Below are positions 3-49,574 of a DNA stretch of 64,000 bases, piece by piece; position 1 is the first letter of the stretch; every line of letters starts with the position of its first letter. This DNA comes from Candidatus Omnitrophota bacterium (GTDB taxonomy: Bacteria; Omnitrophota; Gorgyraeia; Duberdicusellales; 4484-171). The notes under the pieces were generated by a model. That model ran no database searches. It saw only the letters and a list, made by a program, of their open reading frames with translations, and was not told the origin of the DNA. The translations under genes were made by a program, and so were the position numbers. The stretch is taken from positions 160,001 through 224,000 of the forward strand of contig JAIPGM010000002.1 of assembly GCA_021735655.1 (NCBI GenBank), read 5' to 3'.

Positions 3-182
3 CCGTTATTAGTTATCCGAGGTTTTGTGATTAAGCGTATTGATTCCGACGCCCCACTCGGTGAGCCTATCGCCGGGACACCTTTTTTTAAAATACCGGA
101 AGTTACCGGAGATGAGCGTAATTTAGAGGTAGAGCTGATTTTATCTTCTTTCTCAGAACTTTCACCCGATGGGGGGATATAG
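3..182 (+). CDS. C-terminal fragment of an upstream ORF (partial, unknown function)
   Basis: Frame 3 is open from the window edge to TAG at 180-182 (..ELSPDGGI*). No homology is recognisable by eye. It lies directly upstream of the PilX-like gene. Confidence 0.3.
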   Translation, partial: PLLVIRGFVIKRIDSDAPLGEPIAGTPFFKIPEVTGDERNLEVELILSSFSELSPDGGI

Positions 183-249: not shown

Positions 250-3200
250 ATGAAATTAAAAACAAGCAAAACCCAAACTTTACTTTATGTCGGGTTTGTT
301 CTTTTGGCTGTTGCTATGATTACGACAATAGTCATAACCGGTACAATAAGCAGCATAAAAACCGCCAATCAACAGGGCAAGGGGGCTGAAGCTTATCAAT
401 TGGCTATGGCTGGTATTGAACGAGCTAAGACCGAATTAACTGCTAATTGGGATACTTGGACTATGGATACTCTTTTGGATGAGGATCCACATCGCGGAGA
501 TACAACTGGTTTAGATGAAACCGAAGCTCTCGGAGAAGGACAATATTGGGTTCGGGTTTTAGACACTGTTCCGGCTGATCCTGATAAGTTATGGATTATT
601 TCTCATGGCTGGGTGGATGATGCCCATCGGATTATTGAGGTCGAGTTCCAACGGCCTACGGTAGCTGCGCTTGATCCGAGCTTGGTTGCTCACTACCCCT
701 TTGAAGGCGATGCAACTGACTTAAGCATTTATGAAAATCACGGAATTGAAGCTGGAAATATTGCCTATGGCGTTGGTAAATTTGGCCGAGCTAAAAGATT
801 TGACGGAAACGGTGACTATGTTGATTGCGGCACTGATCCAAGTTTGGACTTAGGGGGTTCTTTTACCATTAGCGCTTGGGTTAATCCTACTGTTTTAGAA
901 AGTTATGCTGGCATTGTTAGTAAAGATTCTAATAGATGGTCTCCCTACAGTTATATGGCTGTAACTCATGGTTCCTATATGGGTATTTTTGATAATGCCG
1001 CCTGGCGGTTCTCTGCCCCAGGGGTGATCAGCGCCAACACTTGGCATCATCTTGTTTGGGTTCATCAATCTGGTACGGTCACACTTTATGTAGACCGAGC
1101 ACTTGTCGGCACAAGTCTTATGCTTGACACTGACGACCCCAATGATAATACTTATATCGGTAGTTGGTATTCAGGACACACGGCTTATGATTTTAATGGT
1201 TATATCGATGAAGTTAAGATTTGGAACCGGGCGCTGAATATAGCTGAGATTGAGGCAGAAAACCGGCGCACAGACCCGATCGCCCACTACCCCTTTGAAG
1301 GTAATGCCTTTGATGCTAGTGGTAATGGAAATAACGGAACCGAAGGCGGAGACATTGCCTATTCTACCGGTAAAATTGACCAGGCTAAAAATTTTGATGG
1401 TAGCGGAGATTATGCCTTAATACCGGCAACAAGCAATTTTGATCTTCAAGATATGACTATTTCTTGTTGGACCTATTCTGATAATTATGATGCTAATATG
1501 TTTATGTTTGAAAAAACTACCAATGACAGCGTTAATACTCAGTATTCGTTATTTTTTAATGGTGGTGGAAGCAGTAGTCAAATTTATTTTCGTACCTACG
1601 GCCTTTCTGCCGTAAATCTTGTAGCTACCGATCATGCTAACGGTCCAGTAGATGGTCAATACAATCATATTGCTGCTACCTATACTTCGGCAACTGGCAC
1701 AAAGAAGATATATTGTAATGGTAACGAAATAGCCACGGTTAGCGGCCTTAGCGGAACAATCAATACAAATCCGGCTGGTACGTCTTGGATTGGAGCTTAT
1801 GGCGGTGGAGCAGGATATCCTTTTAATGGCCAAATTGACGATCTTAAAATTTGGAACCGAGCATTGACTGCCGATGAAGTTAGGGCCGAATTTATCGAAG
1901 GAAATGATGGTTTGGTCGCTTACTATCCTTTTGAGGGGAATGCCAATGATCTAAGCGGCATCGGAAATCACGGAACTCAATTTGGAAACGTTTCTTATGG
2001 CACTGGAAAGTTCGGTCGAGCTAAATTTTTTGACGGAAGCGGTGATTATGTTGATTGCGGCAGCGATTCAAGTCTTGATTTTAGTAACGCTTTTACGATT
2101 AGCGCCTGGATTAATCCAACTACCTTAAAAAACTATGCTGGTGTTGTTTCTAAAGATTCTAATCGATGGTCACCTTATAGTTATATGGCGGTTTCTCATG
2201 GTTCCGGGTATATGGGGATTTATAGTGGTGGTTGGCTGTGGGCTGCAGCTAGTCCCGGATTAATTCAAGTTAATAACTGGTCTCATCTTACCTGGGTTTA
2301 TCAGAATAACCTAATTTATTTTTATATTGATGGGGCACCGGTAGGCACAAGTGCTATGGCCTACACCGATGACCCCAATGATAATACTTATATCGGTAGT
2401 TGGTATTCCGGTGGTACTGGTTATGATTTTAGGGGTTACATCGATGAAGTTAAGATTTGGAACAAGGCTCTAAGTGCTGATGAAATTGCCGAGAATTATC
2501 GTGGTGGGGTGACTGCCCAATCAATAAGGCAGGGCTTAGTCGCTGACTATCCTTTTGAAAATAATAGCTGGGCTGATTTAAGCGGTTTAGGAAATGATGG
2601 TACAGCTCAAGGAGGTGCTTCTTTTGTCGCTGATGGACAAGTCGGCCAGGCTGCTAGTTTTGATGGTATTAATGATCGTGTAATTGTTGATGATGACCCG
2701 TCCATATCTGGATTAAATGCGGTGACAGTTTCAGCCTGGATTAGGGCTCAAGATTTTGGTGTCGGCGGTGATTATAATTTTGTTGCTACTAAATCTAATT
2801 GGGATGACAATCGGGAGTATAGGATAAGAATTGAGAATGGAAATACCCTTGTCTGGCATATAAGTAATGATGGTAATGATCCAGGAGGTGCAGAGAATTC
2901 GATCCCGGTCGCTGGAAACCTAAACCTTAATCAATGGCACCATCTAGTCGGAACTTATAGTGATACGGATTCTTTATGTAGACTTTATGTTGATGGTAGT
3001 CTTAAAGACACTGACACCTGTGAAGCTGGAGGTATTTTTAATGGTACGGCCAATCTTGCTATTGGTGGCTCCGGCGATAATGGGGCCAGCGGGAATCAAG
3101 ATGACTTCCATGGTCGAGTCGATGAAGTTAAGATTTGGAACCGAGCTTTAGGGGTAGATGAAATTGAATGGCTTTATGCTAATGAGGTTGGAAATAACGG

Positions 3201-5061
3201 CTTAGTTGCTTATTATCCTCTTGAAAATAGCCTCGCTGATCTAAGCGGTAACGGAAATACCGCAACTACCAATGGCCTTAGCTTTACTTCTGGCAAATTC
3301 GGCCGGGGGGCCAGCTTTGACGGAAATGATTACATGCAAGTTCTTTCTTCAGCAAGCCTACCTTGGGGCGGGGCGTTACGGACTAACTATTCAATTGCTT
3401 ATTGGTTTAAGACTAGTGATCCGTATTCTGGTTTGCATGGTGTATATTCATTAGCTGCCGGAAGTAACGGGCATGATCGGCATCTTTATCTTTGGGCTGG
3501 TAATACTTATCAAAGAGTTTGGAGCAATCAGGTTATCAATACCCTAGGGGAGAATTATGCTGATAGTAAGTGGCACCATGTTGTTCAGTGGCTTAAATCT
3601 GGTGTTGCCCAAAGGACTTATATTGATGGCAAAGCAGTAGCTGCCGGATCAAAACATACCTCAGATTTCACCTGGCCGGATCGAATTTGGTTTGGTCATT
3701 CGGCTGACCGGGGTTATTTTACCGGGCTTCTTGATGATATCCGAATTTACAATCGGCCTTTATTCGATTTTGAAATTAAAAACTTAGCTAGCGGTTTAGT
3801 CGCCTATTACCCTTTTGAGGGCAATGCAACTGATGCTAGCGGGAATGGAAATCATGGAACTGAAGAAGGTGGCGTTTCTTATAGTGAAGCTGAGCCTGAT
3901 CGGGCTGCTGTTTTTGATGGTAGTAATGATTGCGTCAGCGTGAACAGTTTTGGTAATTTTGAAACAATGACCGTGTCAGCTATGGTTTACCGAACCGGCG
4001 CTACCAGCGCCCGAGAAAGCATAGTTTCCTACAAGGAAGGAGCTGGAGTAAATCAAGGTTTTGTGCTTTGTCTGAATGAAAACGGCTCTAGTCAATATCC
4101 ACGAATTTATGTTCAGGTCAATGGTGTTTGGCGAGCAGTCGAGCAGACCGTAGCGATCCCTCTGAATACTTGGGTCCATTTGGCAGCTTCTTATGATGGT
4201 ACAACCATAAGACTTTATCGAGACGGTGTTCAAGTTGCCTCTGGTAACTATGCCGGGAGTATGACTAATGATGGCTCACAGATGATCGGTATTGGTGCCC
4301 GGGCAAGTTTAAATACATATTGGTTTCCTGGGCAGATTGATGAGGTTAAAATTTGGAGCAGTGCTTTGGGTGCTGATGATATTAAAACTGAATATATTGA
4401 AGCAAATAATGGTCTAGTTGCTTACTACCCATTTGAGGGTGATGCGACTGATTTGAGTGGCTTGGGAAATCATGGAGTTGAAAGTGGGAATATTGCTTAT
4501 CTTCCCGGTAAATTCAGCCAGGCTAAGAATTTTGACGGAAACAATGATTATGTTAATTGTGGTAGTGATTTAAGCCTTGATTTAGGCGATTCTTTTACGA
4601 TTAGTGCTTGGATTAATCCCACGGTTTTAAAAAATTATGCTGGCATTGTTAGTAAAGATTCTAATCGAGGGGCACCCTACAGCTATCTGGCTGTTTCTCA
4701 TGGTTTAGGGTATATGGGTATTTATAATAATGCTGTCTGGCAGTGGTCTCATCCAGGATTAATTAGTACTGGTAAATGGCAGAATGTTATTTGGTTGCAT
4801 AAAAATGGTCAGCTTGGCTTTTTTGTCGATGGGGTATTATTTAATGTGATTTCGATGACTTATCCCGATGATCCTAGCGACAATACTTACATCGGCAGTT
4901 GGTCTCCCAGTTATGATTTTAATGGTTTAATTGATGACGTTAAAATTTGGAATCGAGCTATTTCCGATAAAGAAATCGGTGAGATAGTGGTGGATCCTTC
5001 ATCAGTTTCTACGCCGGCAGAAGGCCTTAAACCAGTATCTGGTACTTGGGGGGAAAGGTAA
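250..5061 (+). CDS. Giant secreted/pilus-associated protein: PilX_N-like minor-pilin N-terminal domain fused to 7 tandem LamG (Laminin_G_3 / concanavalin A-like lectin) repeats
   Basis: ORF of 1603 aa. The N-terminus has a hydrophobic helix followed by AEAYQLAMAGIERAKTEL, which resembles the PilX_N motif (..AFYAAEAGLE..). Seven ~200-aa repeats follow, each starting LVAYYPFEGNA.D.SG.GNHG and ending ..DEVKIWNRAL...EI, the classic Laminin_G_3 signature. Confidence 0.8.
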   Translation: MKLKTSKTQTLLYVGFVLLAVAMITTIVITGTISSIKTANQQGKGAEAYQLAMAGIERAKTELTANWDTWTMDTLLDEDPHRGDTTGLDETEALGEGQYWVRVLDTVPADPDKLWIISHGWVDDAHRIIEVEFQRPTVAALDPSLVAHYPFEGDATDLSIYENHGIEAGNIAYGVGKFGRAKRFDGNGDYVDCGTDPSLDLGGSFTISAWVNPTVLESYAGIVSKDSNRWSPYSYMAVTHGSYMGIFDNAAWRFSAPGVISANTWHHLVWVHQSGTVTLYVDRALVGTSLMLDTDDPNDNTYIGSWYSGHTAYDFNGYIDEVKIWNRALNIAEIEAENRRTDPIAHYPFEGNAFDASGNGNNGTEGGDIAYSTGKIDQAKNFDGSGDYALIPATSNFDLQDMTISCWTYSDNYDANMFMFEKTTNDSVNTQYSLFFNGGGSSSQIYFRTYGLSAVNLVATDHANGPVDGQYNHIAATYTSATGTKKIYCNGNEIATVSGLSGTINTNPAGTSWIGAYGGGAGYPFNGQIDDLKIWNRALTADEVRAEFIEGNDGLVAYYPFEGNANDLSGIGNHGTQFGNVSYGTGKFGRAKFFDGSGDYVDCGSDSSLDFSNAFTISAWINPTTLKNYAGVVSKDSNRWSPYSYMAVSHGSGYMGIYSGGWLWAAASPGLIQVNNWSHLTWVYQNNLIYFYIDGAPVGTSAMAYTDDPNDNTYIGSWYSGGTGYDFRGYIDEVKIWNKALSADEIAENYRGGVTAQSIRQGLVADYPFENNSWADLSGLGNDGTAQGGASFVADGQVGQAASFDGINDRVIVDDDPSISGLNAVTVSAWIRAQDFGVGGDYNFVATKSNWDDNREYRIRIENGNTLVWHISNDGNDPGGAENSIPVAGNLNLNQWHHLVGTYSDTDSLCRLYVDGSLKDTDTCEAGGIFNGTANLAIGGSGDNGASGNQDDFHGRVDEVKIWNRALGVDEIEWLYANEVGNNGLVAYYPLENSLADLSGNGNTATTNGLSFTSGKFGRGASFDGNDYMQVLSSASLPWGGALRTNYSIAYWFKTSDPYSGLHGVYSLAAGSNGHDRHLYLWAGNTYQRVWSNQVINTLGENYADSKWHHVVQWLKSGVAQRTYIDGKAVAAGSKHTSDFTWPDRIWFGHSADRGYFTGLLDDIRIYNRPLFDFEIKNLASGLVAYYPFEGNATDASGNGNHGTEEGGVSYSEAEPDRAAVFDGSNDCVSVNSFGNFETMTVSAMVYRTGATSARESIVSYKEGAGVNQGFVLCLNENGSSQYPRIYVQVNGVWRAVEQTVAIPLNTWVHLAASYDGTTIRLYRDGVQVASGNYAGSMTNDGSQMIGIGARASLNTYWFPGQIDEVKIWSSALGADDIKTEYIEANNGLVAYYPFEGDATDLSGLGNHGVESGNIAYLPGKFSQAKNFDGNNDYVNCGSDLSLDLGDSFTISAWINPTVLKNYAGIVSKDSNRGAPYSYLAVSHGLGYMGIYNNAVWQWSHPGLISTGKWQNVIWLHKNGQLGFFVDGVLFNVISMTYPDDPSDNTYIGSWSPSYDFNGLIDDVKIWNRAISDKEIGEIVVDPSSVSTPAEGLKPVSGTWGER

Positions 5062-7784: not shown

Positions 7785-8637
7785 AGAAATCAGAAAGACT
7801 ATTGTTTTGGCTTTAAATGAAGATTCGGCGAGAAGAGATATTACTACTAGCTTAGCGATTCCAAAAGCCACTAGGATTAAGGTGGAGATCATTGCTAAAG
7901 AAAAGGGTTTACTCTGCGGCATCGAGGTAGCAAAAGCAGTTTTTAAGCAGATTAATAAAAAAGTAATTTTTAAAGCACTAAAGAAGGACGGTGCGACTTT
8001 AAAGCCTGGACAAAGAGTTGCAATAATTGCCGCCAGAGCTAGGGATATTTTAGCTGCTGAGAGAGTAGCTTTAAACTTCCTTTCGTTTTTATCGGCTGTA
8101 GCAACTAACACTGAAAAATTTGTTCATCAATCAAAGGGTAATAAAGCGATAATTATGGATACCCGTAAAACCATACCTAACTTGCGCCAGTTGCAAAGAT
8201 ATGCAGTTTTAGTAGGTGGAGGCCGCAATCATCGTAGTTGTTTATCGGGAGCGGTTTTAATTAAAGATAATCACTTAAGAATTGGCCGATATCTAAATAA
8301 GGGTAAATTAGACGATAAAAAGATTGCTAAGTTAGTTAAAAATTTTAGAAAGAAATCTTCTGGCAAAATTGAAATTGAAATTGAAGAATTATCTGAATTC
8401 CGCCAGGTTGCTCAAGCTAAGCCGGATATTATTATGCTTGATAACTTCTCTTTAGCTGATTTAAAAAAAGCGGTAAGTATGCGCAATGAAAGTTTCCCGA
8501 GACTAAAGCTAGAGGCTTCAGGCGGAATAACCTTAAAGAATGTCCGGGCGGTTGCTCGTAGCGGAGTAGACCGGATATCTATTGGTTGCCTAACGCACTC
8601 CCTAAAATCTATCGATTTCTCATTAGAAGTAATATAG
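7771..8637 (+). CDS. nadC: Nicotinate-nucleotide (quinolinate) pyrophosphorylase
   Basis: 288 aa with the NadC/QAPRTase fold pattern (..AARARDILAAERVALNFLSFLSAVAT.., LVGGGRNHR, IKDNHL, EASGGI). Its start overlaps the end of valS. Confidence 0.8.
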   Translation: MLLTKEIRKTIVLALNEDSARRDITTSLAIPKATRIKVEIIAKEKGLLCGIEVAKAVFKQINKKVIFKALKKDGATLKPGQRVAIIAARARDILAAERVALNFLSFLSAVATNTEKFVHQSKGNKAIIMDTRKTIPNLRQLQRYAVLVGGGRNHRSCLSGAVLIKDNHLRIGRYLNKGKLDDKKIAKLVKNFRKKSSGKIEIEIEELSEFRQVAQAKPDIIMLDNFSLADLKKAVSMRNESFPRLKLEASGGITLKNVRAVARSGVDRISIGCLTHSLKSIDFSLEVI

Positions 8638-8642
8638 TTTAG

Positions 8643-10625
8643 ATGGACCGATTTAAGCTGGTCAGTAAATTCAAGCCTACCGGAGATCAACCTCAGGCAA
8701 TAAAGAAGCTCATTCAGCGGATAAAGTCTGAGAAGCGTTTTTCTACTCTTTTGGGTGTAACCGGATCAGGGAAAACCTTTACTTTGGCTTGTGCAATCGA
8801 GAAGTTGAATCGTCCGGTTTTAGTGATTTCTCACAATAAAACCCTAGCTAGTCAGCTTTATGCTGAGTTTCGCGAGTTTTTTCCTCAAAATGCGGTTGAA
8901 TATTTTGTTAGTTATTACGATTATTATCAACCGGAAAGCTATATTCCTCAAACTGATACCTATATTGAAAAGGATGCATCAATTAATGATCGTCTTGATC
9001 GCTTAAGGCTTTCATCGACAAGTTCACTTATTGCTCGCCAAGATGTTATAGTAGTCGCATCGGTATCTTGCATTTATAACTTAGGTTCTCCAGAAGATTA
9101 TCAGAATTTAACGTTAAATTTAGTCTCGGGTCAGGCTTTACAAACTGAAAGTGTTATTAAGCAGCTTACCGAGCTTCAGTATGAGCGCAATGACTTTGAT
9201 TTTCAAAGAGGAACCTTTCGCTTGAAAGGTGATACTTTAGATATTTTCCCATCTTACAAGGAGCGGCCACTGCGAGTAGAGTTTTTTAATCAGGAGTTAG
9301 AGAAAATTTATGAGTTTGATCAGGCCAGTGGAAAAAAGATTAGCGACTTGGAGAGAGTAAGTATCTATCCGGCAAAACATTTTATCATCGAGAAGGATAA
9401 AATTGAGGCAGCTTCAAGAACGATTTCTTTAGAGCTTGAGGATCGTTGCGATTTTTTTAAAAAAGAAGGAAAACTCCTTGAAGCTCAGCGTTTGAGGCAG
9501 CGAACTCTTTTTGATCTTGAAATGTTGAATGAGTGCGGATATTGTCATGGCATTGAAAACTATTCTCGCCATTTAACTGGTCGCCCGACTGGATCAAGGC
9601 CATTTTGTCTTTTAGACTACTTTTCTAAAGACTTTATTACTATTATTGATGAAAGCCATGTGACTGTACCTCAGGTACGGGGAATGTATGAGGGCGATAA
9701 GTCGCGAAAAAAAACCTTAGTTAACTATGGCTTTAGGTTGCCGTCTTGCTTAGACAACCGGCCGCTTCGTTTTGATGAGTTTACCAAATTAATTAACAAA
9801 GCAGTTCATGTTTCCGCAACTCCGGCAGAGTATGAATTAAAACTTTCTGACTACAAGGTTGTCGAACAAATTATTAGACCCACTGGGCTACCTGACCCGG
9901 AAATAGAAGTTCGCCCAAGTGAAAATCAAATCGAAGATATAATCGCGGAAGTTAAAAACCGGATTAAGAGCAAAGAACGAACCTTGATTACTACTTTGAC
10001 TAAACGGATGGCTGAGGAACTTTCACGATATTTGGCTGATGAAGGATTAAAAGTCAGCTATGTCCATTCAGAGGTCAATACTTTTGAGAGGACAAAGATT
10101 TTGAAAGATCTCCGGATGAAAAAAATTGACCTTTTGGTTGGAGTAAATCTTTTACGGGAAGGGTTAGACTTACCGGAAGTATCTTTAGTGATAATCCTTG
10201 ATGCTGACAAAGAAGGATTCTTGCGTTCAGCAACGTCATTAATCCAGGTGGCCGGAAGATGCGCCCGCAATATTAACGGACACGTTATCATGTATGCAGA
10301 TAGGGTTACTAAATCAATGCAGAAAGCAATCAATGAAAGTTCGCGTCGCCGGAAGGTGCAACTTGAGCATAATCGAATCAATAATATTACCCCTAGGAGT
10401 ATTCAGAAGGCAATCAATGAAGGTATTGAAATATACTTAAAAGAAGCGAATAAGCTTAATCAGCGACTTGATCTTAAAGAAGAAGTTGGTAGCTTACATG
10501 AAGTTATTGGCCAGCTTGAAAAGGAGATGTTTTTGGCGGCTAAGCATTTACATTTTGAAAAAGCCGCTAGTTTACGTGATAAAATAGAAGAGCTGCGCAA
10601 AGTTATTGCCAAAAAGGTTAAATAG
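8643..10625 (+). CDS. uvrB: Excinuclease ABC subunit B
   Basis: 660 aa. N-terminus FKLVSKFKPTGDQPQAI, Walker A GVTGSGKT, helicase motifs, and a C-terminal UvrB/UvrC interaction helix (EKAASLRDKIEELR). Confidence 0.95.
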   Translation: MDRFKLVSKFKPTGDQPQAIKKLIQRIKSEKRFSTLLGVTGSGKTFTLACAIEKLNRPVLVISHNKTLASQLYAEFREFFPQNAVEYFVSYYDYYQPESYIPQTDTYIEKDASINDRLDRLRLSSTSSLIARQDVIVVASVSCIYNLGSPEDYQNLTLNLVSGQALQTESVIKQLTELQYERNDFDFQRGTFRLKGDTLDIFPSYKERPLRVEFFNQELEKIYEFDQASGKKISDLERVSIYPAKHFIIEKDKIEAASRTISLELEDRCDFFKKEGKLLEAQRLRQRTLFDLEMLNECGYCHGIENYSRHLTGRPTGSRPFCLLDYFSKDFITIIDESHVTVPQVRGMYEGDKSRKKTLVNYGFRLPSCLDNRPLRFDEFTKLINKAVHVSATPAEYELKLSDYKVVEQIIRPTGLPDPEIEVRPSENQIEDIIAEVKNRIKSKERTLITTLTKRMAEELSRYLADEGLKVSYVHSEVNTFERTKILKDLRMKKIDLLVGVNLLREGLDLPEVSLVIILDADKEGFLRSATSLIQVAGRCARNINGHVIMYADRVTKSMQKAINESSRRRKVQLEHNRINNITPRSIQKAINEGIEIYLKEANKLNQRLDLKEEVGSLHEVIGQLEKEMFLAAKHLHFEKAASLRDKIEELRKVIAKKVK

Positions 10626-15065: not shown

Positions 15066-18000
15066 ATGAAGCGTCGAAAAATTCCCATAGATGGAAATAC
15101 CGCAGCAGCTCATGTTGCTCATGCTACCAATGAAGTTATTGCGATTTATCCGATAACCCCTTCCTCTGGTGTTGGGGAGATGGCTGACGAAAAGTCAGCT
15201 AAAGGCGAGACTAATATTTGGGGTCAGATACCAGTAGTCTCAGAACTTCAATCAGAAGGTGGAGCTTCTGGGGCCGTTCACGGAGCACTTTCAGCCGGCA
15301 GCCTTACAACTACTTTTACCGCATCTCAGGGCTTGTTGTTAATGGTTCCGAATATGTTTAAGATCGCCGGCGAGTTAACGCCAACCGTTTTTTATGTAAC
15401 TGCTCGCACTGTAGCAACTCATGCGCTTTCGATATTTTGTGACCATTCTGATGTTATGGCGGCACGTTCTACGGGCTTTGGAATTTTATTTGCAAACAGC
15501 GTTCAGGAAGTTATGGATTTAGCTTTGATTGCCCAGAGTTCAACTCTAAAAACTCGAGTTCCCTTGCTGATGGTTTATGATGGTTTTCGTACTTCTCATG
15601 AAATTCAAAAGGTAGAGGAGCTAGCTAAAGAAGATATGTTAGCTTTAATTGATTTTGGAGATATTACTGCTCATCGCAGACGAGCGCTTACCCCAGATTG
15701 TCCGACCATAAAAGGTACATCACAGAATCCTGATGTTTTTTTTCAAGAAAGAGAAACTGTAAATGCTTTTTATGAAAATGCACCGGATATTGTTCAAACG
15801 GCAATGGATAAATTTTCTAAGCAAGTTGGCAGGAGTTATAGTCTTTTTGAGTATGTTGGAGCGCCCGATGCCGAAAGAATCGTTGTGATTATGGGTTCTG
15901 GCGCTGAAACCGTTCATGAGACTGTTGATTATCTAACTAAACAGGGCGAAAAGGTAGGCCTGGTTAAGGTTAGACTTTATCGTCCATTCTCGGTTGATGC
16001 TTTTGTTGATAGTTTTCCTAAGACTACTAAAGCAATAGCTGTTTTAGACAGAACTAAAGAGCCGGGGGCAATTGGTGAGCCACTTTATCTAGATGTGCGT
16101 TCAGCTATCGGTGAAGCTTTGGAGAATAAAGTTGCCCCTTTTAAAGAGTGGCCTAAAATCATTGGTGGCCGGTATGGTTTAGGTTCGAAAGAATTTACCC
16201 CTTGCATGGTTAAGGCAGTTTTTGATAATTTAGCTAAGAGTGAAGTTAAAAACCATTTTACCGTCGGCATTGAAGACGATTTAACCAACCACAGTTTAGA
16301 GACTAATAGTTGTTTTTCATCTGAGAATACGCAAAACTTTAGAGGTGTTTTTTACGGTCTCGGTTCTGACGGAACCGTTGGTGCTAATAAGAATTCAATT
16401 AAAATAATTGGTGAATTGACTGATAATTATGTTCAGGCTTATTTTGTTTATGATTCAAAGAAGGCTGGAGCTCGCACCGCTTCTCATCTTCGTTTTGGAA
16501 AAGATCCAATCCGTAGCACCTACCTTATTCAGCAGGCGAACTTTGTCGCTTGTCATAATTTTTCTTTTGTCGAGAAGTTTGACTTGCTTTCAGTTGCTGA
16601 GGAAGGCGCAACCTTTCTTTTGATTAGTCCTTACGGTAAGGATCAAGTTTGGGATCGTCTTCCAATCGAAGTCCAGAAGGAAATAATTCAAAAGAAACTT
16701 AAATTTTATGTGATTAATGCAACTAAACTTGCTGAAAGTTTGGGCTTAGGGGCAAGAATTAACACGATTATGCAGACAGCCTTTTTTACAATCAGTAATA
16801 TTTTACCGATTGATCAGGCAATAACAGCCATAAAAGATGCGATTAAGAAAACTTACGGCAGTAAGGGTGATAAAGTGGTACAGATGAATATGGCTGCGGT
16901 TGATAAAGCGGCTGGGGCTATTGAAGAGGTGTTGGTGCCTAGTGAGGCTACTAGTAAAATTTCTATACCTTTGGTTGTCCCTGATAATTCGCCAGAGTTT
17001 GTGAAAAAAGTAACTGCTAAAATTATTGAAGGCAAGGGCGATGAATTACCGGTGTCGGCCTTCCCTAATGACGGAACTTACCCGACTGCGACCACTCAAG
17101 TTGAAAAACGTAATATTGCCACTCAGATTCCTGAGTGGGATCCATTAGTTTGCATTCAGTGCGGACAGTGTTGTTTGATGTGTCCGCACGGAGTTATCCG
17201 AATGAAGATATATAATAAGGACCAATTGACTAAGGCTCCAGCTGAATTTAAGCATACTCAGGCCAAAGGTAAGGATTTGGAAAGTAAGGCCTTTACGCTT
17301 CAAGTTGCCCCTGAGGATTGCACTGGTTGTGGAGTCTGCGTTAATAGTTGTCCGGTGTTCAAAAAGGATGATAATAGTAAGCCTACCGACAAAAAGGCAA
17401 TTAATATGGTTGCTCAAATTCCAGTACGTGAGCGTGAACGGAAAAGCTTCGAGTATTTTCTCTCTTTGCCGGATATGAAGATTGAGGATTTACCGATCCC
17501 AATCAGCACTGTTAAAGGTTCTCAACTCATGCGACCGTTATTTGAATTTTCCGGTGCTTGTGCTGGATGTGGAGAAACCGCTTATGTTAAATTGATGACT
17601 CAGCTTTTCGGAGATCGAGCCTTAATCGCCAACGCGACAGGGTGTTCGTCTATTTACGGTGGTAACTTGCCGACCACTCCTTATTGTGTTAATAGTGATC
17701 AACGTGGTCCAGCTTGGTCTAATTCTCTTTTTGAGGATAATGCTGAGTTTGGCTTCGGTATGCGTTTGAGTTTGGATCAGATTAATGATCGGGCCAAGCA
17801 GTTACTTAAAGAATTACTTAGCAAGAAAGCCCTAGGGGATAATTCTACCTTAGCTAATGAAATACTTAATGGCAATCAGGATACTCATCAGGATATCGAA
17901 AATCAACGCTTAAGAGTGGCAAAGCTTAAAGATGTTTTGAAGAAACTTTCTAATGATAAGCTGGCTCAAGAGTTATTGTCATTTGCTGATCAACTGGTTA

Positions 18001-18665
18001 AAAAATCGGTATGGATTTTAGGTGGTGACGGGTGGGCTTATGATATTGGTTACGGTGGTCTGGATCACGTTTTGGCTTCAGGTAAAAATATTAATGTTTT
18101 AGTTTTGGACACTGGGGTTTATTCAAATACCGGCGGCCAGATGTCTAAAGCGACTCCGATGGGCGCGATAGCTAAATTTGCTGCCGCTGGTAAGCCATTA
18201 CCGCGCAAAGATTTAGCAATGCTTGCTATGAGTTACGGTAATGTGTACGTTGCTCGTATTGCCATGGGTGCAAATTCAGCTCAGACCCTCAAAGCATTTT
18301 TAGAAGCTGAAAGCTATCCTGGCCCCTCAATAATTATTGCTTATTCTCAATGCATTGCTCACGGTATCAATATGACTAAAGGTGTGGATGCACAAAAAAA
18401 GGCTGTTGCTTCTGGTGATTGGCCTTTGGTAAGATTTAATCCTCAGTTATTAAAAGAGAAGAAAAATCCTTTGCAGCTTGACAGCAAGTCGCCGAGCATA
18501 CCTTTAGAAGAATATATCTACAGTGAAAATAGATTTAAAGCTTTAAAAACTGCAGCGCCGGAAAGAGCAGAGATGCTATTGAAGTTGTCACAGGAAGAAA
18601 TTATTAGAAGATTTAAGATTTATGAATATCTATCAAAGATGGATTGTTGCAATTCGGACGAATAA
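15066..18665 (+). CDS. nifJ: Pyruvate:ferredoxin (flavodoxin) oxidoreductase, homodimeric single-chain type
   Basis: 1199 aa. TPP-binding and ferredoxin-like domain with two CxxCxxCxxxCP motifs (CIQCGQCCLMCP; CTGCGVCVNSCP). Strong RBS GAGGAGG. Confidence 0.93.
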   Translation: MKRRKIPIDGNTAAAHVAHATNEVIAIYPITPSSGVGEMADEKSAKGETNIWGQIPVVSELQSEGGASGAVHGALSAGSLTTTFTASQGLLLMVPNMFKIAGELTPTVFYVTARTVATHALSIFCDHSDVMAARSTGFGILFANSVQEVMDLALIAQSSTLKTRVPLLMVYDGFRTSHEIQKVEELAKEDMLALIDFGDITAHRRRALTPDCPTIKGTSQNPDVFFQERETVNAFYENAPDIVQTAMDKFSKQVGRSYSLFEYVGAPDAERIVVIMGSGAETVHETVDYLTKQGEKVGLVKVRLYRPFSVDAFVDSFPKTTKAIAVLDRTKEPGAIGEPLYLDVRSAIGEALENKVAPFKEWPKIIGGRYGLGSKEFTPCMVKAVFDNLAKSEVKNHFTVGIEDDLTNHSLETNSCFSSENTQNFRGVFYGLGSDGTVGANKNSIKIIGELTDNYVQAYFVYDSKKAGARTASHLRFGKDPIRSTYLIQQANFVACHNFSFVEKFDLLSVAEEGATFLLISPYGKDQVWDRLPIEVQKEIIQKKLKFYVINATKLAESLGLGARINTIMQTAFFTISNILPIDQAITAIKDAIKKTYGSKGDKVVQMNMAAVDKAAGAIEEVLVPSEATSKISIPLVVPDNSPEFVKKVTAKIIEGKGDELPVSAFPNDGTYPTATTQVEKRNIATQIPEWDPLVCIQCGQCCLMCPHGVIRMKIYNKDQLTKAPAEFKHTQAKGKDLESKAFTLQVAPEDCTGCGVCVNSCPVFKKDDNSKPTDKKAINMVAQIPVRERERKSFEYFLSLPDMKIEDLPIPISTVKGSQLMRPLFEFSGACAGCGETAYVKLMTQLFGDRALIANATGCSSIYGGNLPTTPYCVNSDQRGPAWSNSLFEDNAEFGFGMRLSLDQINDRAKQLLKELLSKKALGDNSTLANEILNGNQDTHQDIENQRLRVAKLKDVLKKLSNDKLAQELLSFADQLVKKSVWILGGDGWAYDIGYGGLDHVLASGKNINVLVLDTGVYSNTGGQMSKATPMGAIAKFAAAGKPLPRKDLAMLAMSYGNVYVARIAMGANSAQTLKAFLEAESYPGPSIIIAYSQCIAHGINMTKGVDAQKKAVASGDWPLVRFNPQLLKEKKNPLQLDSKSPSIPLEEYIYSENRFKALKTAAPERAEMLLKLSQEEIIRRFKIYEYLSKMDCCNSDE

Positions 18666-26865: not shown

Positions 26866-28127
26866 ACTACGATGTAAAGGATAAAAAATTAGCCTCCGAA
26901 GGTAAGAAAAGAATTGAATGGGCTATTCAAAGAATGCCGGTTTTAGAACAAATACGCCGACGGTTTTCTAAAGAGAAAACTCTTAAAGGTTTAACTATTG
27001 GTGCTTGCCTGCATATAACTACCGAGACTGCGGCTTTAGCAGTTACCCTAAAGGCTGCCGGAGCTCGAGCTTTGTTTTGCGCCTCGAATCCTTTATCGAC
27101 CCAGGATGATACCGCGGCTTCCTTGGTTTTTGATTATGGAATAGAGGTATTTGCAATTAACGCCGAAGATACAAAGACTTATTATAGCCATATTAATTCA
27201 GTCTTAGCGGCTAAACCTCAGATTACTCTTGATGACGGGGCAGATTTAGTTTCAACGATTCATAAACGGGCGGCTAGCTCTAAAAAAATAGACTACTTGC
27301 CTTGGGCAAGTACCGAAGAGACGACCACCGGGGTAATTCGTTTAAAGGCCTTGGAGAAAGAGGGTCGGTTGCTTTATCCAGTGGTTGCCGTTAATGATGC
27401 CTATACTAAACATTTATTTGATAATCGTTACGGAACTGGACAATCAACCATTGACGGGATAATTCGAGCCACTAACAAATTAATTGCTGGGACAACTCTA
27501 GTTGTTTGTGGCTATGGTTGGTGTGGAAAAGGTGCTGCCCAACGTGCTCGTGGTTTGGGAGCAAGAGTGGTTGTTTGTGAGGTAGACCACCTAAAGGCGC
27601 TTGAAGCAGTTATGGATGGTTTTTCAGTGATGCCGATGAAAGAAGCTGCAAAGATTGGCAATATATTTATTACGGTAACTGGAGATATAAATGTTATTGC
27701 TCGCGATCATTTTCCTTTAATGCAAGATGCGACTTTAGTTTGTAATTCTGGTCATTTTGATGTGGAGATTGAGATTAAAGCTCTTGCTAAAATGGCAGTT
27801 AAGCAAAGAGAAGCCAAACCTTTAGTGCGCGAATTTACCCTTAAAAATGGAAAGCGAATCTATCTTTTGGGAGAAGGTCGGCTAGTAAACCTTGCTTGTG
27901 CCGAAGGACATCCGGCTGAAGTTATGGACTTAAGTTTTGCGAACCAGGCTTTAAGCTGTGAATTTATCGCAAAAAATAAAGGTAAACTTAAAAAACAAGT
28001 TTATAAAGTTCCTGATAGAATAGATTTAAAAGTTGCTGAGCTTAAATTAAAGTCAATGGGCATAAAAATTGATAAGTTGACTAAAGAACAAAAAGCCTAT
28101 TTGAGTGCTTGGCAAGAAGGAACCTAA
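26862..28127 (+). CDS. ahcY: Adenosylhomocysteinase
   Basis: 421 aa with a Rossmann NAD-binding GYGWCGKG motif and typical AHCY pattern. Its start overlaps the metK stop. Confidence 0.85.
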
Positions 28128-28141
28128 AGCAGGAGGCACTT

Positions 28142-29797
28142 ATGCGCTATCTGGTTGGTTTTATTCTGTTTTCGTTTGTTTTGATTCCGGTGGGGTTTTG
28201 TCAGCAAGTAGTTAATTCTGAAATTACTGAAGTGGTTACTTTTTCCGACCAAGCCCTAGTTACTCGTCAAGCTGAAACTAATGTTATTAAAGGGTTAAAC
28301 GAGCTGCAAATTGACGTTGACGCTTATCAGGTAGATTCGGATTCAATTCAGTTGAGTATTTACGGAAAAGGGGAGATTAACAGTGTTCAGCTTAGGCAAA
28401 TTTATTTAAAAATCGAGCCTCAGGAAAAAGTAAATATTTTAACCAAAAAGCTTGAAGATTTAAATGATAAAAAATTATCCTGGCTTAAGGAAAGTGATGT
28501 TCTAGGCAAGCAAGAGAAGTTTTTAAACTCATTGATTGATTTTGCTCAAACCCAAGTTCCGGAAGACATAAAAACAAGCTTTCCTAATTCTAAGGATTTA
28601 AAAGAGGCGCTTAGCTTTTTATCTGATGGTTATAGTGAAATTAATCAGCGGGCGATAGTTTTGGCTCAAGAGTTAAGGGAGTTAGAAAAAGAGATAAAGG
28701 TTGTTGAAAAAGAATTAGCTTCTTTGCGTCGGCCAAATCAAAAAACCAAGAAAGTTATTGAAGTTGCGTTTAATAGTCTCGTAAATCAAAAAATAACTAT
28801 TGATGCAACCTATCTAGTTCAAGGTGCCTACTGGCAGCCATTTTATAAGGTAAATGTGCCGCTTGAGTTAAAAAAGATAAACTTAACGATGTTTTCACAA
28901 ATTATACAGAAGACCGGCGAAGATTGGAAAGATGTAAAGTTGGCAATTTCGAATGTTATGCCGCTTAAAGGATCTGATATTCCTTCATTAGGCAGTTGGT
29001 TACTTGATCTAACGTCCTATAAGAAGCAGGATGTGCTTAGTCTAGCAAGGACAACTAATTTTCAATTTGAGGGACTTGCAGAGAAAGGTTTTGCTGGCGA
29101 TGAAATGGGTGCCGCTCCTTATGAAAGAGAAGAGGAAGCTAAATTTGTTCAAGCGGTTCAAAAAGAGCTGCCACTTTCTTTTGAGTATCAGCTTCCGCAA
29201 AAGGTTTCGATTGATTCACAGAACAAAGAAACTACTTTGCCGCTTTTTTCAAAAACGCTTAAGGGTGATTTTTTTCATTATTCTGTACCCAAAGTTTCTT
29301 CTTTAGTTTTTCTGACCAGTCGTATTACTCCTGACAAGGAGCTCTTGCCGGGATTGTTAAATGTTTATTTTGCCGGAAGATTTGTTGGAAAGACTCAATT
29401 GGCTGAGAAAAAAGCCGGAGAGAAATTTGATATTAATCTTGGGGCAGACCGTCAGGTAATCGTAAAGCGCGAAAAGTTAAAGGATAAAATCCAAGAAACT
29501 TTTTTTAAAAAAATTCAGCGACAAACAATCATCCGTAACCTAGCCTTTAAAATAACTGTCGAAAACAGAAAAGATAAGGCAGTTAAGCTGCATTTAGTTG
29601 ATGCAATCCCAGTATCAAAGACTGATCGGATAGAAGTAAAGGATATTAAGATTTCACTTAAGCCAAATAAAGAAAACTATCAAGATCAAGAAGGGCTTAA
29701 ATTGTGGATTATTGATCTTAAACCGGGCGAGAAAAAGGATATTGATATAGATTTTACCGTGACTTATCCTAAGGATGCCCCAGTTAGTGGATTATGA
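28142..29797 (+). CDS. Secreted DUF4139-family protein (mucoidy-inhibitor MuiA-like), function unknown
   Basis: Start trimmed to the ATG after AGGAGG. Signal peptide MRYLVGFILFSFVLIPVGFC, then a coiled-coil segment and a C-terminal beta-rich domain. The family assignment is from memory and tentative. Confidence 0.5.
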   Translation: MRYLVGFILFSFVLIPVGFCQQVVNSEITEVVTFSDQALVTRQAETNVIKGLNELQIDVDAYQVDSDSIQLSIYGKGEINSVQLRQIYLKIEPQEKVNILTKKLEDLNDKKLSWLKESDVLGKQEKFLNSLIDFAQTQVPEDIKTSFPNSKDLKEALSFLSDGYSEINQRAIVLAQELRELEKEIKVVEKELASLRRPNQKTKKVIEVAFNSLVNQKITIDATYLVQGAYWQPFYKVNVPLELKKINLTMFSQIIQKTGEDWKDVKLAISNVMPLKGSDIPSLGSWLLDLTSYKKQDVLSLARTTNFQFEGLAEKGFAGDEMGAAPYEREEEAKFVQAVQKELPLSFEYQLPQKVSIDSQNKETTLPLFSKTLKGDFFHYSVPKVSSLVFLTSRITPDKELLPGLLNVYFAGRFVGKTQLAEKKAGEKFDINLGADRQVIVKREKLKDKIQETFFKKIQRQTIIRNLAFKITVENRKDKAVKLHLVDAIPVSKTDRIEVKDIKISLKPNKENYQDQEGLKLWIIDLKPGEKKDIDIDFTVTYPKDAPVSGL

Positions 29798-44349: not shown

Positions 44350-45597
44350 ATGCGGTACTTAAAAATACTCAAGAAACGGAATTTTTTCCTTCTTTGGTTT
44401 GGCCAAATAATTTCTCAATTTGGCGATCGGCTCACTCAGATTGCTCTGGTTGGTTTAGTATCGGCGGCTTCAAAATCTTCGGCCCAGTTGGCGGTTGTAA
44501 TGAGCATGGCGATTGTGCCAGTTTTTATTATTTCACCAATATCTGGTGTGTATATTGACCGTTGGGATAAGCGTAAAACACTCTACCTTTGCGATTCAAT
44601 AAGGGTTATTCTTATGTTGTTAATACCGTTTGTTTTCCTTAAATCGCATTCACTTATTCCGATATATGCTTTAATTTTCCTTTCTTTTAGTGCTGGTCGG
44701 TTTTTCATTCCGGCTAAGATGGCCTTCTTACCCCGAGTGGTTGAAAAAAAAGATATATTTATGGCTAACTCATTAATATCTAATACCGCAACCATTGCTG
44801 CCGTATTAGGAATTGGTTTGGGTGGGGTATTGGTCGAAAGATATGGGCTAGTCGTTGGCTTTAATCTCGACGCGGCAACTTTTTTTATTTCGGGTATGTC
44901 AATTTTTTTAATTTCGGTTCAAGGCAAAGGTGAGTTCTTAGCTAAAGACATTTTAGATATTGGAAAAAATGTTGTCGCTAGCGTAAAGAAATCATTTTTG
45001 TATGAATTAAAAGAAGGGATTGGCTATATTTTTAAATCAAAAGAAACAAAGTACGCTTTTAAAATATTTTTCTTTCTTTTTTCATATATCGGAGCTTTGT
45101 ACGTCGTGTTCATTCGATTTATTCAAAATACCTTATCTTCAGTTACCAAGGATGTAGGCTTTGCTGCAGTTGGTTTAGGGGCAGGAATTTTTTTGGGAAC
45201 CTTAGCTTATGGTCGAATTGCCCATAAGTTTTCAATTAAAAAAGTTATTAACTGGTCAGTATTGCTTTCATCTTTTTTTATTGTATTTTTTGCAGTATTC
45301 TTAAGGGGATATCCCTATACTATTTGTTTAATTTTGCTGGCTTTCGGGCTAGGAATTATGATTTCTCCGGCTTTTGTTGGGGTCAATGCTTTAATTCATC
45401 GAGAGAGTGACGAGAATCTGCTAGGCAGAATTTTTAGCGGCTTAGAGTTTACTTCCCATTTAGGATTTTTAGTTGCAATGCTTTGTGCTTCAATACTAGC
45501 TGATATTATGACTCCCTTTACAATTGTAGTTTCGGTCGGTATAATCGGATCATTTTTTTCCTTATGTTTTATTTTTTGTGATGATTACAGTAGCTGA
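44350..45597 (+). CDS. MFS transporter
   Basis: 415 aa, 12 predicted TM helices, MFS motif-A-like GDRLTQIA / DRWDKRK loop. Confidence 0.7.
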   Translation: MRYLKILKKRNFFLLWFGQIISQFGDRLTQIALVGLVSAASKSSAQLAVVMSMAIVPVFIISPISGVYIDRWDKRKTLYLCDSIRVILMLLIPFVFLKSHSLIPIYALIFLSFSAGRFFIPAKMAFLPRVVEKKDIFMANSLISNTATIAAVLGIGLGGVLVERYGLVVGFNLDAATFFISGMSIFLISVQGKGEFLAKDILDIGKNVVASVKKSFLYELKEGIGYIFKSKETKYAFKIFFFLFSYIGALYVVFIRFIQNTLSSVTKDVGFAAVGLGAGIFLGTLAYGRIAHKFSIKKVINWSVLLSSFFIVFFAVFLRGYPYTICLILLAFGLGIMISPAFVGVNALIHRESDENLLGRIFSGLEFTSHLGFLVAMLCASILADIMTPFTIVVSVGIIGSFFSLCFIFCDDYSS

Positions 45598-46867
45598 ATG
45601 TAAAAAACCTCAGTCTAAGCTTCGAAGCGAAAAATTTTTGACTCCAAAGAAGCTCTATCTACCACTTTCTCAACATACCGGAAAACCTTCCAGTTGTTGT
45701 GTTAAGGTTGGTGATTTTATTGAAGAGTCGCAAGTAATCGCCAATCAAGATGGCTACATCTCTTCCTATTTGCATGCCCCAGCTAGTGGCAAGGTAATAG
45801 CAATTAATGCTTGGAACAATCCGGTTTTAGGGAGATCTGAAGCAATTATTTTAGAACCACAAGGAGTTAGTAAAAAATATTTACCGAGAGAGGGCATTGA
45901 GAACCTTACTAAGGAAAAGCTTATTGAAATTATTGCTGCTAGCGGTATCGTTGGCATGGGTGGAGCAGCCTTTCCTACTCAAGTTAAACTCAAAAGTCCC
46001 AAACCGATCGACACCTTAATTATTAACGGCTGTGAATGCGAACCTTATCTCACTACCGATCATCGTTTAATGGTTGAGAATTTAAAAGAAATCTTTCTCG
46101 GTATCGAAATTATTTGCCGGATAATTAAACCCAAAGTGGTAATTTTTGCTGTCGAAGAAAACAAATCGGATGCAATAAAGCAGATAAATCTATTAATACA
46201 TACGAAGAAGTTTTCCTTGCTAGCAGCTCGCACAGCGGTTTTGCCTTCTTATTATCCCCAGGGCGGCGAAAAGCAATTAATTTACAGTACTACTAGACGT
46301 AAGGTTCCTGGCGGAAAGTTGCCTTTGGATCTTGGCTGTTTGGTGCATAATGTTGCAACCTGTTTTGCTATTTACGAAGCAGTTTATTATAGTAAGCCCT
46401 TAATCGAGCGTTTAGTGAGTTTTTGTGGCGAGGCCTTGACTGCCCCAAAAAACATTTGGGTTAAAATCGGAACTTCACTCAAAGAACTGTTTGACCAAAA
46501 AATTATAGAATTTAGAACTGAACCGGAGAAGATAATTTCCGGAGGCCCAATGATGGGGACGAGTTTGGACAGTTTGGATTACCCAATCCTTAAATCAACT
46601 GGAGGGTTTTTGTTTCTAACTAAAGGGCCAAAAGAACTGACAGAAGGTTCTTGTTTGCGTTGTGCGCGTTGTGTCGACGCTTGTCCGATGGAACTTTTAC
46701 CTTTAGAGTACTATAAACGAGCAAAAAAAGGCGAGTATCAGGATTTAAGCACTTTTAATATAAATGATTGCATTGAATGCGGTTGCTGTGCTTTTAGCTG
46801 TCCGGCTAAAATTCCGCTTGTGCATTATATAAAAGCAGGAAAACGTTATGCCCCTAAAAATAAGTAG
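45578..46867 (+). CDS. rnfC: Rnf complex subunit C (NADH-binding, Fe-S)
   Basis: 429 aa. RnfC barrel-sandwich N-terminus, SGIVGMGGAAFPT, and two 4Fe-4S motifs CLRCARCVDACP / CIECGCCAFSCP. Confidence 0.85.
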   Translation: MMITVAECKKPQSKLRSEKFLTPKKLYLPLSQHTGKPSSCCVKVGDFIEESQVIANQDGYISSYLHAPASGKVIAINAWNNPVLGRSEAIILEPQGVSKKYLPREGIENLTKEKLIEIIAASGIVGMGGAAFPTQVKLKSPKPIDTLIINGCECEPYLTTDHRLMVENLKEIFLGIEIICRIIKPKVVIFAVEENKSDAIKQINLLIHTKKFSLLAARTAVLPSYYPQGGEKQLIYSTTRRKVPGGKLPLDLGCLVHNVATCFAIYEAVYYSKPLIERLVSFCGEALTAPKNIWVKIGTSLKELFDQKIIEFRTEPEKIISGGPMMGTSLDSLDYPILKSTGGFLFLTKGPKELTEGSCLRCARCVDACPMELLPLEYYKRAKKGEYQDLSTFNINDCIECGCCAFSCPAKIPLVHYIKAGKRYAPKNK

Positions 46868-47798: not shown

Positions 47799-48397
47799 AA
47801 GAAATAATTAAAATTATTGTAGTTTTAACTTTAGTCTGCATTATTTGTGCGTTTTTTTTAGCTTTAGTTCAAGGCTTAGCTGAGAAAAAAATTGAGTTTA
47901 ATGCTGCTAAAAGAATAAAGGACGCGATATCTAATCTTGCTCCTGGTTATTCAGATATTGAAGAAATTGTTGTAGAGGAAGATGTCATTTATAAGTTAAA
48001 AGATAAATCAGGAAAGTCAATCGGCTATGCTTTCTCAGCTCAAGGCCAAGGCTACCAGGGAAAGATAAAAATCTTAGCGGTAGCCAACCCTTCCTTGAAT
48101 CGCCTTGAGGGAATTGAAATAGTCGACTCTTTAGAGACTCCTGGTTTAGGAGCAAAGATACAGGAAGAACCTTTTAGTGGTCAGTTTAAGGGACTTAATT
48201 TAGGCGAATCAATCCAGTGTGTTAAGGGTGCTTCGACTGATGACGATAAGGTCCCGGCTGTTAGTCAAGCGACAAAAGTCTACTCAAAGAGTCAAATTGA
48301 AGCAATTACTGGAGCAACCGTTTCCTCAAGGGCAGTGGTTAATATCTTAAATGAACGTATTAAAATATTACATAAGCAGTTAAAGAAAGATAACTAG
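47795..48397 (+). CDS. rnfG: Rnf complex subunit G (FMN-binding)
   Basis: 200 aa. N-terminal TM plus FMN_bind domain with the covalent-FMN motif SGATVSS. Confidence 0.8.
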   Translation: MKEIIKIIVVLTLVCIICAFFLALVQGLAEKKIEFNAAKRIKDAISNLAPGYSDIEEIVVEEDVIYKLKDKSGKSIGYAFSAQGQGYQGKIKILAVANPSLNRLEGIEIVDSLETPGLGAKIQEEPFSGQFKGLNLGESIQCVKGASTDDDKVPAVSQATKVYSKSQIEAITGATVSSRAVVNILNERIKILHKQLKKDN

Positions 48398-48410
48398 GGT
48401 TTGTTAGAAA

Positions 48411-49573: not shown

Positions 49574-49574
49574 A

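Follow-up and report, generated by a model that had tools for sequence, protein, structure and literature searches.

A candidate pilus-tip adhesin of Candidatus Omnitrophota: a predicted minor pilin with seven LamG domains inserted before its last strand

Among the genes of a Candidatus Omnitrophota bacterium is one that encodes a protein of 1603 amino acids (aa) with a pilin-like N-terminus and seven LamG domains. It lies at the start of a 64-kb stretch of DNA (assembly GCA_021735655.1, contig JAIPGM010000002.1, positions 160,001 to 224,000 of the forward strand), which was analysed as a whole and is referred to here as the window. The open reading frame (ORF) at 250..5061 (+) is a single unbroken frame from ATG to stop codon. 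An earlier note on this DNA had read the product as a PilX-like minor pilin fused to LamG repeats and had proposed a pilus-tip adhesin. This interpretation is supported and essentially right once refined. The refinement concerns the architecture, since by comparison of family sequences the LamG array is an insertion before the conserved last strand of the pilin and not a C-terminal fusion. We consider it likely that the gene encodes a tip-located minor pilin of the PilX/PilK/GspK class, which belongs to a type IVa pilus-like machine and uses its seven-LamG insert as tip adhesin. The grounds are the domain content of the protein, its membership in a family, the pilin fold of a homolog, the operon context of the relatives with their synteny at the K slot, and the conserved terminal strand.

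The terminal strand is shared widely in the family. A terminal [PSG]G[ST]WxE motif is present in the long members P0002 and P0004-P0007 and in nearly all short members (P numbers denote related proteins, L numbers loci). Long members end in KPVSGTWGER (the 1603-aa protein and P0004), VIPGTWRER (P0002), EPGSWREE (L007) or QSGSWRKP (P0005), and P0008 has the motif as IIPGTYREV six residues before its end. In short members the ending, WSWREI, follows directly after the head domain. All complete members thus end in the conserved strand and any cargo stands before it, which contradicts the C-terminal fusion of the earlier description. A hidden Markov model (HMM) of the short members aligns the N-terminal domain of the 1603-aa protein up to position 120 of 139. 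When its last 16 residues are appended, the alignment extends to position 138 and the family-HMM score rises from 71.0 to 76.8 bits, higher than with any of 200 internal 16-mers (maximum 74.7 bits) or 200 shuffled tails (maximum 76.1 bits). The equivalent residues of the short relative P0009 (137-142 and 148-149) are beta-strands in its structural model, with a predicted local distance difference test (pLDDT) score of about 96. A model of P0002 (384 aa with a single LamG insert) has a mean pLDDT of 75; in it a poorly predicted linker is followed by strands made of the last 14 residues, at pLDDT 83. The simplest reading of these sequences places the cargo in the loop that joins the penultimate and the last strands of the pilin head, and the terminal strand is predicted to fold back onto this head. 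GspK and ComZ are precedents for domains inserted in the sheet of a minor pilin (PMC8179133).

The pilin family became visible through an exhaustive phmmer search of 1.84 billion cluster representatives. Searched with the N-terminal domain, this collection returned only 12 proteins, of which one was the 1603-aa protein, ten were relatives and one was a spurious repeat protein. With a profile made of this set, 44 proteins of 121-193 aa were found; one of them, P0030, has a precomputed PilX_N match (PF14341) and two are named PilX by the Joint Genome Institute (JGI). The family comprises about 55 sequences, and those with a taxon name (4 of the 44 found by profile and 3 of the loci) are all Candidatus Omnitrophota. 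The HMM of the 44 short members, from which the window protein was excluded, matches its residues 5-135 with E = 3.5e-16, set for a nominal database of one million sequences. Scanned singly at E <= 1, 23 of 45 aligned family sequences match PilX_N, the best with 2.6e-6. The N-terminal domain is 59% identical to that of P0002, a paralog in the canonical minor-pilin slot, and 54% to that of P0004. P0009 (150 aa) is 44% identical to it, and an AlphaFold2 model of this homolog, made with the 45-sequence alignment (pLDDT 94.1, predicted template modelling score 0.81), shows a helix over residues 2-62 followed by an antiparallel sheet, the alpha-beta lollipop of pilins. Taken together, these sequences indicate that residues 1-137 are most likely a minor pilin of the PilX/GspK class.

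The hydrophobic helix, the AEAYQLAMAGIERAKTEL motif and the YWVRV, ISHGW and IIEVEF strands, all of which the earlier note had described, are present, and the motif and strands form the most conserved columns of the family alignment. The claim of a complete PilX-family pilin within the first ~135 residues is supported as to the class of minor pilin, as judged by the family and by the operon slot of the relatives, and fails for completeness, as the last strand is found at residues ~1590-1603. The homolog P0009 has the pilin lollipop fold in its structural model, and its sequence gives a weak match to the GspK HMM NF037980, with 17 bits (E = 0.0032, cut-off 130). The 1603-aa protein does not match this HMM, and the GspK alpha-domain is absent. 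In an NCBIfam scan the sole match of the N-terminal domain is ComGE (E = 0.044). A word-indexed homolog search with this domain alone found no homologs, a profile search of PDB sequences gave chance-level matches only (E ~1), and Foldseek against PDB was uninformative. The family is invisible to the current pilin models of Pfam and NCBIfam and is therefore missed by surveys of modular pilins.

More distant relatives of the N-terminal domain occur in metagenome-assembled genomes of Nitrospirota, Elusimicrobiota and Deferribacteres (L010-L018, L023-L030), with 27-42% identity over the helix and first strands; the AxxLAxAGxE type of cap pilin therefore reaches beyond Omnitrophota. One further candidate, P0010 (1437 aa), was rejected as a relative, since it matches only the YW..NGW hairpin (residues 94-133). 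It consists of about ten copies of a ~160-aa unit, each with QYWIVINGWDNT, and matched the head hairpin (YWVRV...ISHGW) at E = 1.5e-5, probably by convergence of a beta-hairpin motif.

The seven LamG repeats of the earlier description are confirmed. Pfam finds Laminin_G_3 (PF13385), the family named there, in seven stretches with E = 3e-168 and 553.8 bits against a cut-off of 27.6. The array also has weaker, overlapping matches to jelly-roll lectins of related families, namely the N-terminal domain of sialidase, pentaxin, Laminin_G_2 and the N-domain of the clostridial toxin receptor-binding region. Border motifs recur seven times, with Y[Y]P[FL]E opening the repeats at residues 149, 347, 558, 767, 988, 1186 and 1392 and D[DE][VLI][KR]I[WY][NS] near their ends at residues 325, 535, 737, 963, 1167, 1369 and 1567. 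Repeats 1, 3 and 7 are of one type (type A, 60-67% amino-acid and about 71% DNA identity), and the other four (2, 4, 5 and 6) are 27-42% identical to all others within the protein; by these values the seven repeats did not arise by recent copying. The first 4 kb of the window, largely taken up by the LamG gene, have a G+C content of 0.43, as compared to ~0.38 for the whole. Fold neighbours of the LamG domain of P0002 include CBM40, clostridial Hc-N and the lectin modules of PilC. An unrelated export signal, which the earlier note had held to be incompatible with its proposal, did not emerge: reading of the C-terminus by eye and the Pfam output gave no sortase, type IX secretion system or PEP-CTERM sorting signal in the protein. 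As a different family altogether, TafC of the haloarchaeal Tat-fimbriae (NF052521) was considered and rejected, reaching 219.8 bits summed over the seven repeats against a cut-off of 410 and being matched only in its LamG part (model positions 192-356). TafC is a Tat-exported archaeal subunit (PMC11821415).

Across family members the cargo varies at a single insertion site. P0002 carries one LamG domain, P0004 four and the 1603-aa protein seven. P0005, the 445-aa member of L007 and the 322-aa member of L005 have NHL-type propeller repeats instead, P0008 combines NHL repeats with four LamG domains and Cys-rich linkers, P0006 has a Cys-rich segment with one LamG domain, and P0007 an unrecognised domain. 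Repeat 6 is 75% identical to residues 559-760 of P0004 and 71% to residues 614-811 of P0008, while the pilin module is only 54% identical to that of P0004. With conservation higher in this repeat than in the pilin domain, selection seems to act on certain binding modules, and modules seem to have been exchanged among members. Members with an insert appear to form a narrow subfamily: in genome and metagenome collections the scans gave only about ten loci, from Omnitrophota wherever they are named.

Further enlarged minor pilins are encoded in the same operons of the relatives (L005:1684-2970 and 3013-4164, L007:8296-9348, L008:7039-8421 and 8441-9985). A J-like (PilW-like) protein of 428 aa ends in a LamG domain, a 383-aa paralog has a Cys-rich domain at its C-terminus, I-like proteins measure 350-460 aa and a further J-like protein has 514 aa. 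The whole tip complex may be decorated, and not the K subunit alone.

The protein opens with MKLKTSKT, followed by QTLLYVGFVLLAVAMITTIVITG, and residues 8-37 are its sole hydrophobic segment. With a slash for the predicted cut, the cleavage region reads K-T/Q-T-L-L-Y-V, which places Thr at -1 and Tyr at +5. The absence of a canonical G/FTLIE motif had been recognised before, and indeed Pfam and NCBIfam scans give no N_methyl or TIGR02532 match to the prepilin motif G/F-x-x-x-E (PF07963 / TIGR02532). The N-terminus of the family, K-[GSTA]/Q-x-L-[LI]-[YFL]-V, stands in the same register as that of the neighbouring prepilins, K-L-[GS]/[FVI]-[ST]-L-[IT]-E. Among the relatives in the family the -1 residue is G, A, S or T and the +5 residue is hydrophobic; Gly at -1 (K-G/Q) occurs in many short members, e.g. 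P0012, P0013 and P0019-P0023. Some adjacent bona fide prepilins of the relatives' operons have Ser at -1, and from the frequency of such residues in these pilins we infer that the prepilin peptidase may tolerate Ser, Thr or Ala at this position. A missing Glu5 is characteristic of K-class cap pilins of the GspK/PilX type.

In the relatives, family members belong to a conserved operon. It encodes a secretin, a PilB/GspE-like ATPase with an MshE-type N-domain that binds cyclic di-GMP, one or two pilins, H-, I- and J-like (PilW-like) prepilins and the family member, followed by a platform protein, a PilM-domain protein of ~550 aa and a PilO/GspM-like protein of ~190-240 aa. The canonical K slot, after the H-, I- and J-class minor pilins, is held by a family member in L003, L005, L007, L008 and L009. 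No PilY1-type gene was found in the relatives' operons examined. In L001, L007, L008 and L021 the pilus operon is directly followed by ValS-NadC-UvrB, as in the window. L005 (JGI 3300009311, a 379-kb contig) is syntenic with the window over its whole length and has the same gene order: PilO-like gene, family paralogs, ValS, NadC, UvrB, CoaX, GroES/EL, PAS-HD and PFOR. Besides a member of 384 aa in the canonical slot, it has two paralogs (322 aa and 1344 aa) flanked by the PilO-like gene and ValS. The 235-aa PilO-like protein of L005 comes after PilM_2 and has a weak T2SSM_b match (E = 0.04).

The partial ORF at the start of the window, suspected earlier to be part of the same cluster, matches the C-terminus of this L005 protein and is thus the PilO-like end of a pilus operon. 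The match makes the 1603-aa gene an extra K-class paralog at the operon end, a position in which an extra paralog is found only in this genome and in L005. Downstream follow genes for a class I aminoacyl-tRNA synthetase (ValS-like in relatives), NadC, UvrB, CoaX, GroES/EL, a PAS-HD protein and PFOR, and farther on RuvC/A, MetK, AhcY, glycolysis enzymes, MreB/C, PBP2, RodA, the Rnf complex and an FtsH-like protein. As only housekeeping genes lie downstream in the window, the pilus genes must lie upstream, off the window. The 67-bp gap upstream of the LamG gene has no predicted terminator and a promoter-like site precedes ValS; co-transcription of the LamG gene with the pilus operon is plausible from this arrangement.

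Several points weigh against a tip-located pilin of a type IVa pilus. Residues 1-147 are without any Pfam match, PilX_N included, even at E <= 10, and the PilX_N match expected by the earlier note is found only in relatives. In textbook systems a residue other than Gly at -1, here Thr, blocks the prepilin peptidase. The P0002 model is only moderately confident (pLDDT 75). The gene stands outside the canonical minor-pilin slot, after the PilO-like gene, and as the operon upstream of it lies off the window, the machinery is seen directly only in relatives. There, the machine scores about equally as type IVa pilus or as type II secretion system (T2SS): with all scores below the curated cut-offs, the ATPase reaches 632 bits as PilB and 602 as GspE, the platform 257 as PilC and 290 as GspF, and the secretin 249 as PilQ and 239 as GspD. 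Neither PilT nor PilD was found in the relatives' loci examined.

This balance leads to the strongest alternative, a T2SS-like machine in which the protein would be a GspK-like pseudopilus cap. Its LamG domains would then stay in the periplasm or the secretin vestibule, e.g. gripping glycosylated cargo, or be released, and would not be a surface adhesin. The platform scores best as GspF, ATPase and secretin are nearly equal for both system types, GspG is the best-scoring model for the candidate major pilin, GspK appears as the nearest fold and a retraction ATPase is absent from the loci examined. We nevertheless regard this alternative as unlikely. For ATPase and secretin the pilus models PilB and PilQ are slightly ahead, PilM and not GspL is the actin-like protein, and a seven-domain array of ~160 kDa is hard to fit under a closed secretin. 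Moreover, variable cargo of adhesin type, such as lectin domains and propellers, is a hallmark of pilus-tip adhesins (PMC8179133). Type IVa pili are reported to be near-universal in Omnitrophota and have been proposed for host attachment; surveys of the phylum assign these loci to type IVa pili, and their expression is reported for one species (PMC10066038).

A second alternative, quite improbable in our view, takes the N-terminal helix as an uncleaved signal anchor and the protein as a bitopic inner-membrane protein with periplasmic LamG domains, derived from a pilin and no longer assembled into filaments. Thr at -1 and Tyr at +5 do depart from the G/FxxxE consensus, with no N_methyl match, and the gene is not in the canonical slot, but canonical-slot relatives share K-[STAG]/Q-x-L-x-[YFL] and adjacent bona fide prepilins have Ser at -1. 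The conservation of head and terminal strand, with 59% identity to P0002 in its canonical slot, would be unexpected if the assembly contacts were dispensable. Finally, the gene might be a duplicate without function or in decay, placed at the end of the operon by copying and left unused while its repeats grew by slippage. This would agree with an extra copy known at this position only here and in L005 and with a G+C content slightly above the surroundings, but it is very hard to credit, because the 4.8-kb frame is uninterrupted, the motifs at both termini are conserved, the repeats, at 27-67% identity, are old, distinct and not recent slippage products, and the 71-75% identity of repeat 6 to modules of other members points to purifying selection.

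For the tip-located minor pilin we propose the following course. The short basic leader and the hydrophobic alpha-1 helix would place the protein in the inner membrane, where prepilin peptidase would cut after Thr8. Being without Glu5, like cap subunits, the protein would take the apex of an H-I-J-K priming complex, and growth of the filament would push the capped complex through the secretin. The pilin head would be split, with its strands up to AHRIIEVEFQR, then ~1450 residues of seven LamG domains and then the terminal strand KPVSGTWGER. With this strand back on the head, the array would form a loop that is anchored at both ends and stands out from the pilus tip, a string of ~30 nm by our own estimate if ~4-5 nm are assumed per domain. 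This exposed loop would be the adhesin, and glycans of a partner cell or of a surface would probably be its target. Since relatives carry different cargo at the same site, the 1603-aa protein is probably one of several interchangeable tip subunits.

A bolder form of this proposal is a single-chain PilK-adhesin-plug. Here the cap pilin would keep its final strand and would accept interchangeable cassettes (LamG arrays, NHL propellers, Cys-rich modules) between head and strand, so that PilY1 would no longer be needed. Where a genome has several paralogs, as in this case and in L005, tip specificity would be switched or mixed by the choice of the K subunit that primes the filament. We offer this form tentatively, as a possibility about which we have more doubt than confidence.

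Table 1. Coordinates of the partial ORF and of the parts of the LamG gene at the start of the window.
Feature	Coordinates	Strand	Remarks
C-terminal 59 codons of PilO/GspM-like last assembly gene	3..182	+	Runs off window start; 56% identity, E = 3e-20, to residues 172-230 of 235-aa L005 protein
Putative class III leader MKLKTSKT	250..273	+	Residues 1-8; predicted prepilin-peptidase site T8/Q9; alignment register with relatives and neighbouring pilins
Segment after leader	274..447	+	Position +5 is Tyr, not Glu; P0009 model helix 2-62; nearly invariant columns; hydrophobic segment 8-37
Pilin head	448..660	+	Residues ~67-137; acidic loop, strands YWVRVLD, LWIISHGWV, AHRIIEVEFQR; short-member HMM to position 120/139; P0009 model strands 88-98, 105-116, 119-132
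LamG repeat 1, type A	676..1269	+	Residues 143-340; 67% and 63% identity to repeats 3 and 7
LamG repeat 2	1270..1902	+	Residues 341-551; 27-38% identity to other repeats; Pfam sialidase N-terminal lectin domain match
LamG repeat 3, type A	1903..2529	+	Residues 552-760
LamG repeat 4	2530..3192	+	Residues 761-981; weaker Pentaxin, Laminin_G_2 and Toxin_R_bind_N matches
LamG repeat 5, most divergent	3193..3786	+	Residues 982-1179
LamG repeat 6	3787..4404	+	Residues 1180-1385; module type kept across family members
LamG repeat 7, type A	4405..5004	+	Residues 1386-1585
Linker and conserved terminal strand ...EGLKPVSGTWGER	5005..5058	+	Residues 1586-1603; predicted to complete pilin module; [PSG]G[ST]WxE ending shared with relatives; HMM score gain

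Some observations were made beside the main subject. The pilus operons of four relatives contain a three-gene module between the first pilins and the H/I/J/K set (L001:5601-8007, L007:4914-7251, L008:4106-6533, L009:231-2571), which encodes an ABC ATPase, an ABC-2 permease and a ~300-aa protein without Pfam match. Between the pilus ATPase gene, which it follows directly, and the first prepilin gene there is a conserved ORF of 52 aa (L003:7852-8010, L004:6981-7139), perhaps for a very short peptide with a pilin-like or regulatory role. In the window itself nearly all genes are on the + strand, and the GC skew is positive and strong over the first 36 kb (~0.15-0.20 per 4-kb window), weaker beyond and slightly below zero at 52-56 kb. 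At 45578-50378 (+) stands a complete operon of Rnf type (RnfC, D, G, E, A and B-like), followed by an RseC/MucC-like gene; together with PFOR (15066-18665) its gene content suggests an anaerobic, ferredoxin-based energy metabolism. The 1024-aa FtsH-like protein at 53794-56871 (-) has the domains AAA, M41 (375-545) and a second AAA (609-750), an unusual order for FtsH. Amid central-metabolism genes (AhcY, PfkA) a 562-aa DUF4139/DUF4140 protein is encoded at 28109-29797 (+).

Omnitrophota are uncultivated, mostly ultra-small bacteria suspected to live on or off other cells. To our knowledge no adhesin has so far been assigned to their type IV pili. These pili are the leading candidate for an attachment organelle in the phylum (PMC10066038). 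The family described here provides concrete candidate adhesins, and its variable cargo is a handle on host or substrate specificity. The finding also bears on a very recent model of how pilus tips get armed. If true, it would mean that filament tips can be armed in a third manner, next to modular pilins with appended domains and PilY1 docked by its plug, and would suggest an insertion site for the display of large cargo on pili. The modular minor pilin as a theme is already known; the insert-bearing variant is new.

Among known systems, the nearest class is that of the K-class cap minor pilins, with GspK/XcpX of the T2SS, PilX of P. aeruginosa and PilK of Neisseria. The 1603-aa protein differs from GspK/PilX in that it has no direct PilX_N or GspK HMM match and no GspK alpha-domain, its head being minimal (~75 residues) and a lectin array of ~1450 aa being inserted before the last strand. 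ComZ, the competence pilin of Thermus thermophilus, also has a domain inserted in its pilin fold, a beta-solenoid; this cargo is of another kind (DNA-binding), the phylum is different and the match is weak.

The concept of a modular minor pilin is shared with PilC (pilin with concanavalin/LamG lectin module) and PilB (pilin with vWA module) of Streptococcus sanguinis, and PilC, by its concanavalin-like lectin module, binds glycans (PMC9934059). More than 1,200 modular minor pilins are known from monoderms and diderms, defined by the IPR012902 signature and a C-terminal module, the largest cited having 860 aa (Raynaud et al. 2021, PMC8179133). PilC and PilB are built on pilins with a canonical class III signal (IPR012902), to whose C-terminus a short linker joins the module. 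In contrast, the cargo of the 1603-aa protein is inserted, its carrier is of the K class without class III signature, the organism is a diderm with secretin, and the protein is much longer than that largest example cited.

In diderm type IVa pili the tip adhesin is a separate protein, PilC/PilY1; as a preprint of 2026 shows, its final 12 residues supply a further strand next to PilK's terminal one (10.64898/2026.09.18.752573). The likeness lies in a large, variable, lectin-like adhesin presented on a K subunit. The 1603-aa protein has no Pfam match to the PilC/PilY1 beta-propeller (IPR008707/PF05567), and its N-terminus is pilin-like, without Sec signal. Unlike PilC/PilY1, the Omnitrophota K-like subunit itself bears the terminal strand after the cargo, so that adhesin and pilin form one chain. 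By analogy, this strand may be the equivalent of the PilC/PilY1 plug, which we advance as a hypothesis. An engineered fusion of PilK and plug makes PilC dispensable (10.64898/2026.09.18.752573), and the Omnitrophota protein, if our reading is true, would be the natural precedent for this fusion of 2026.

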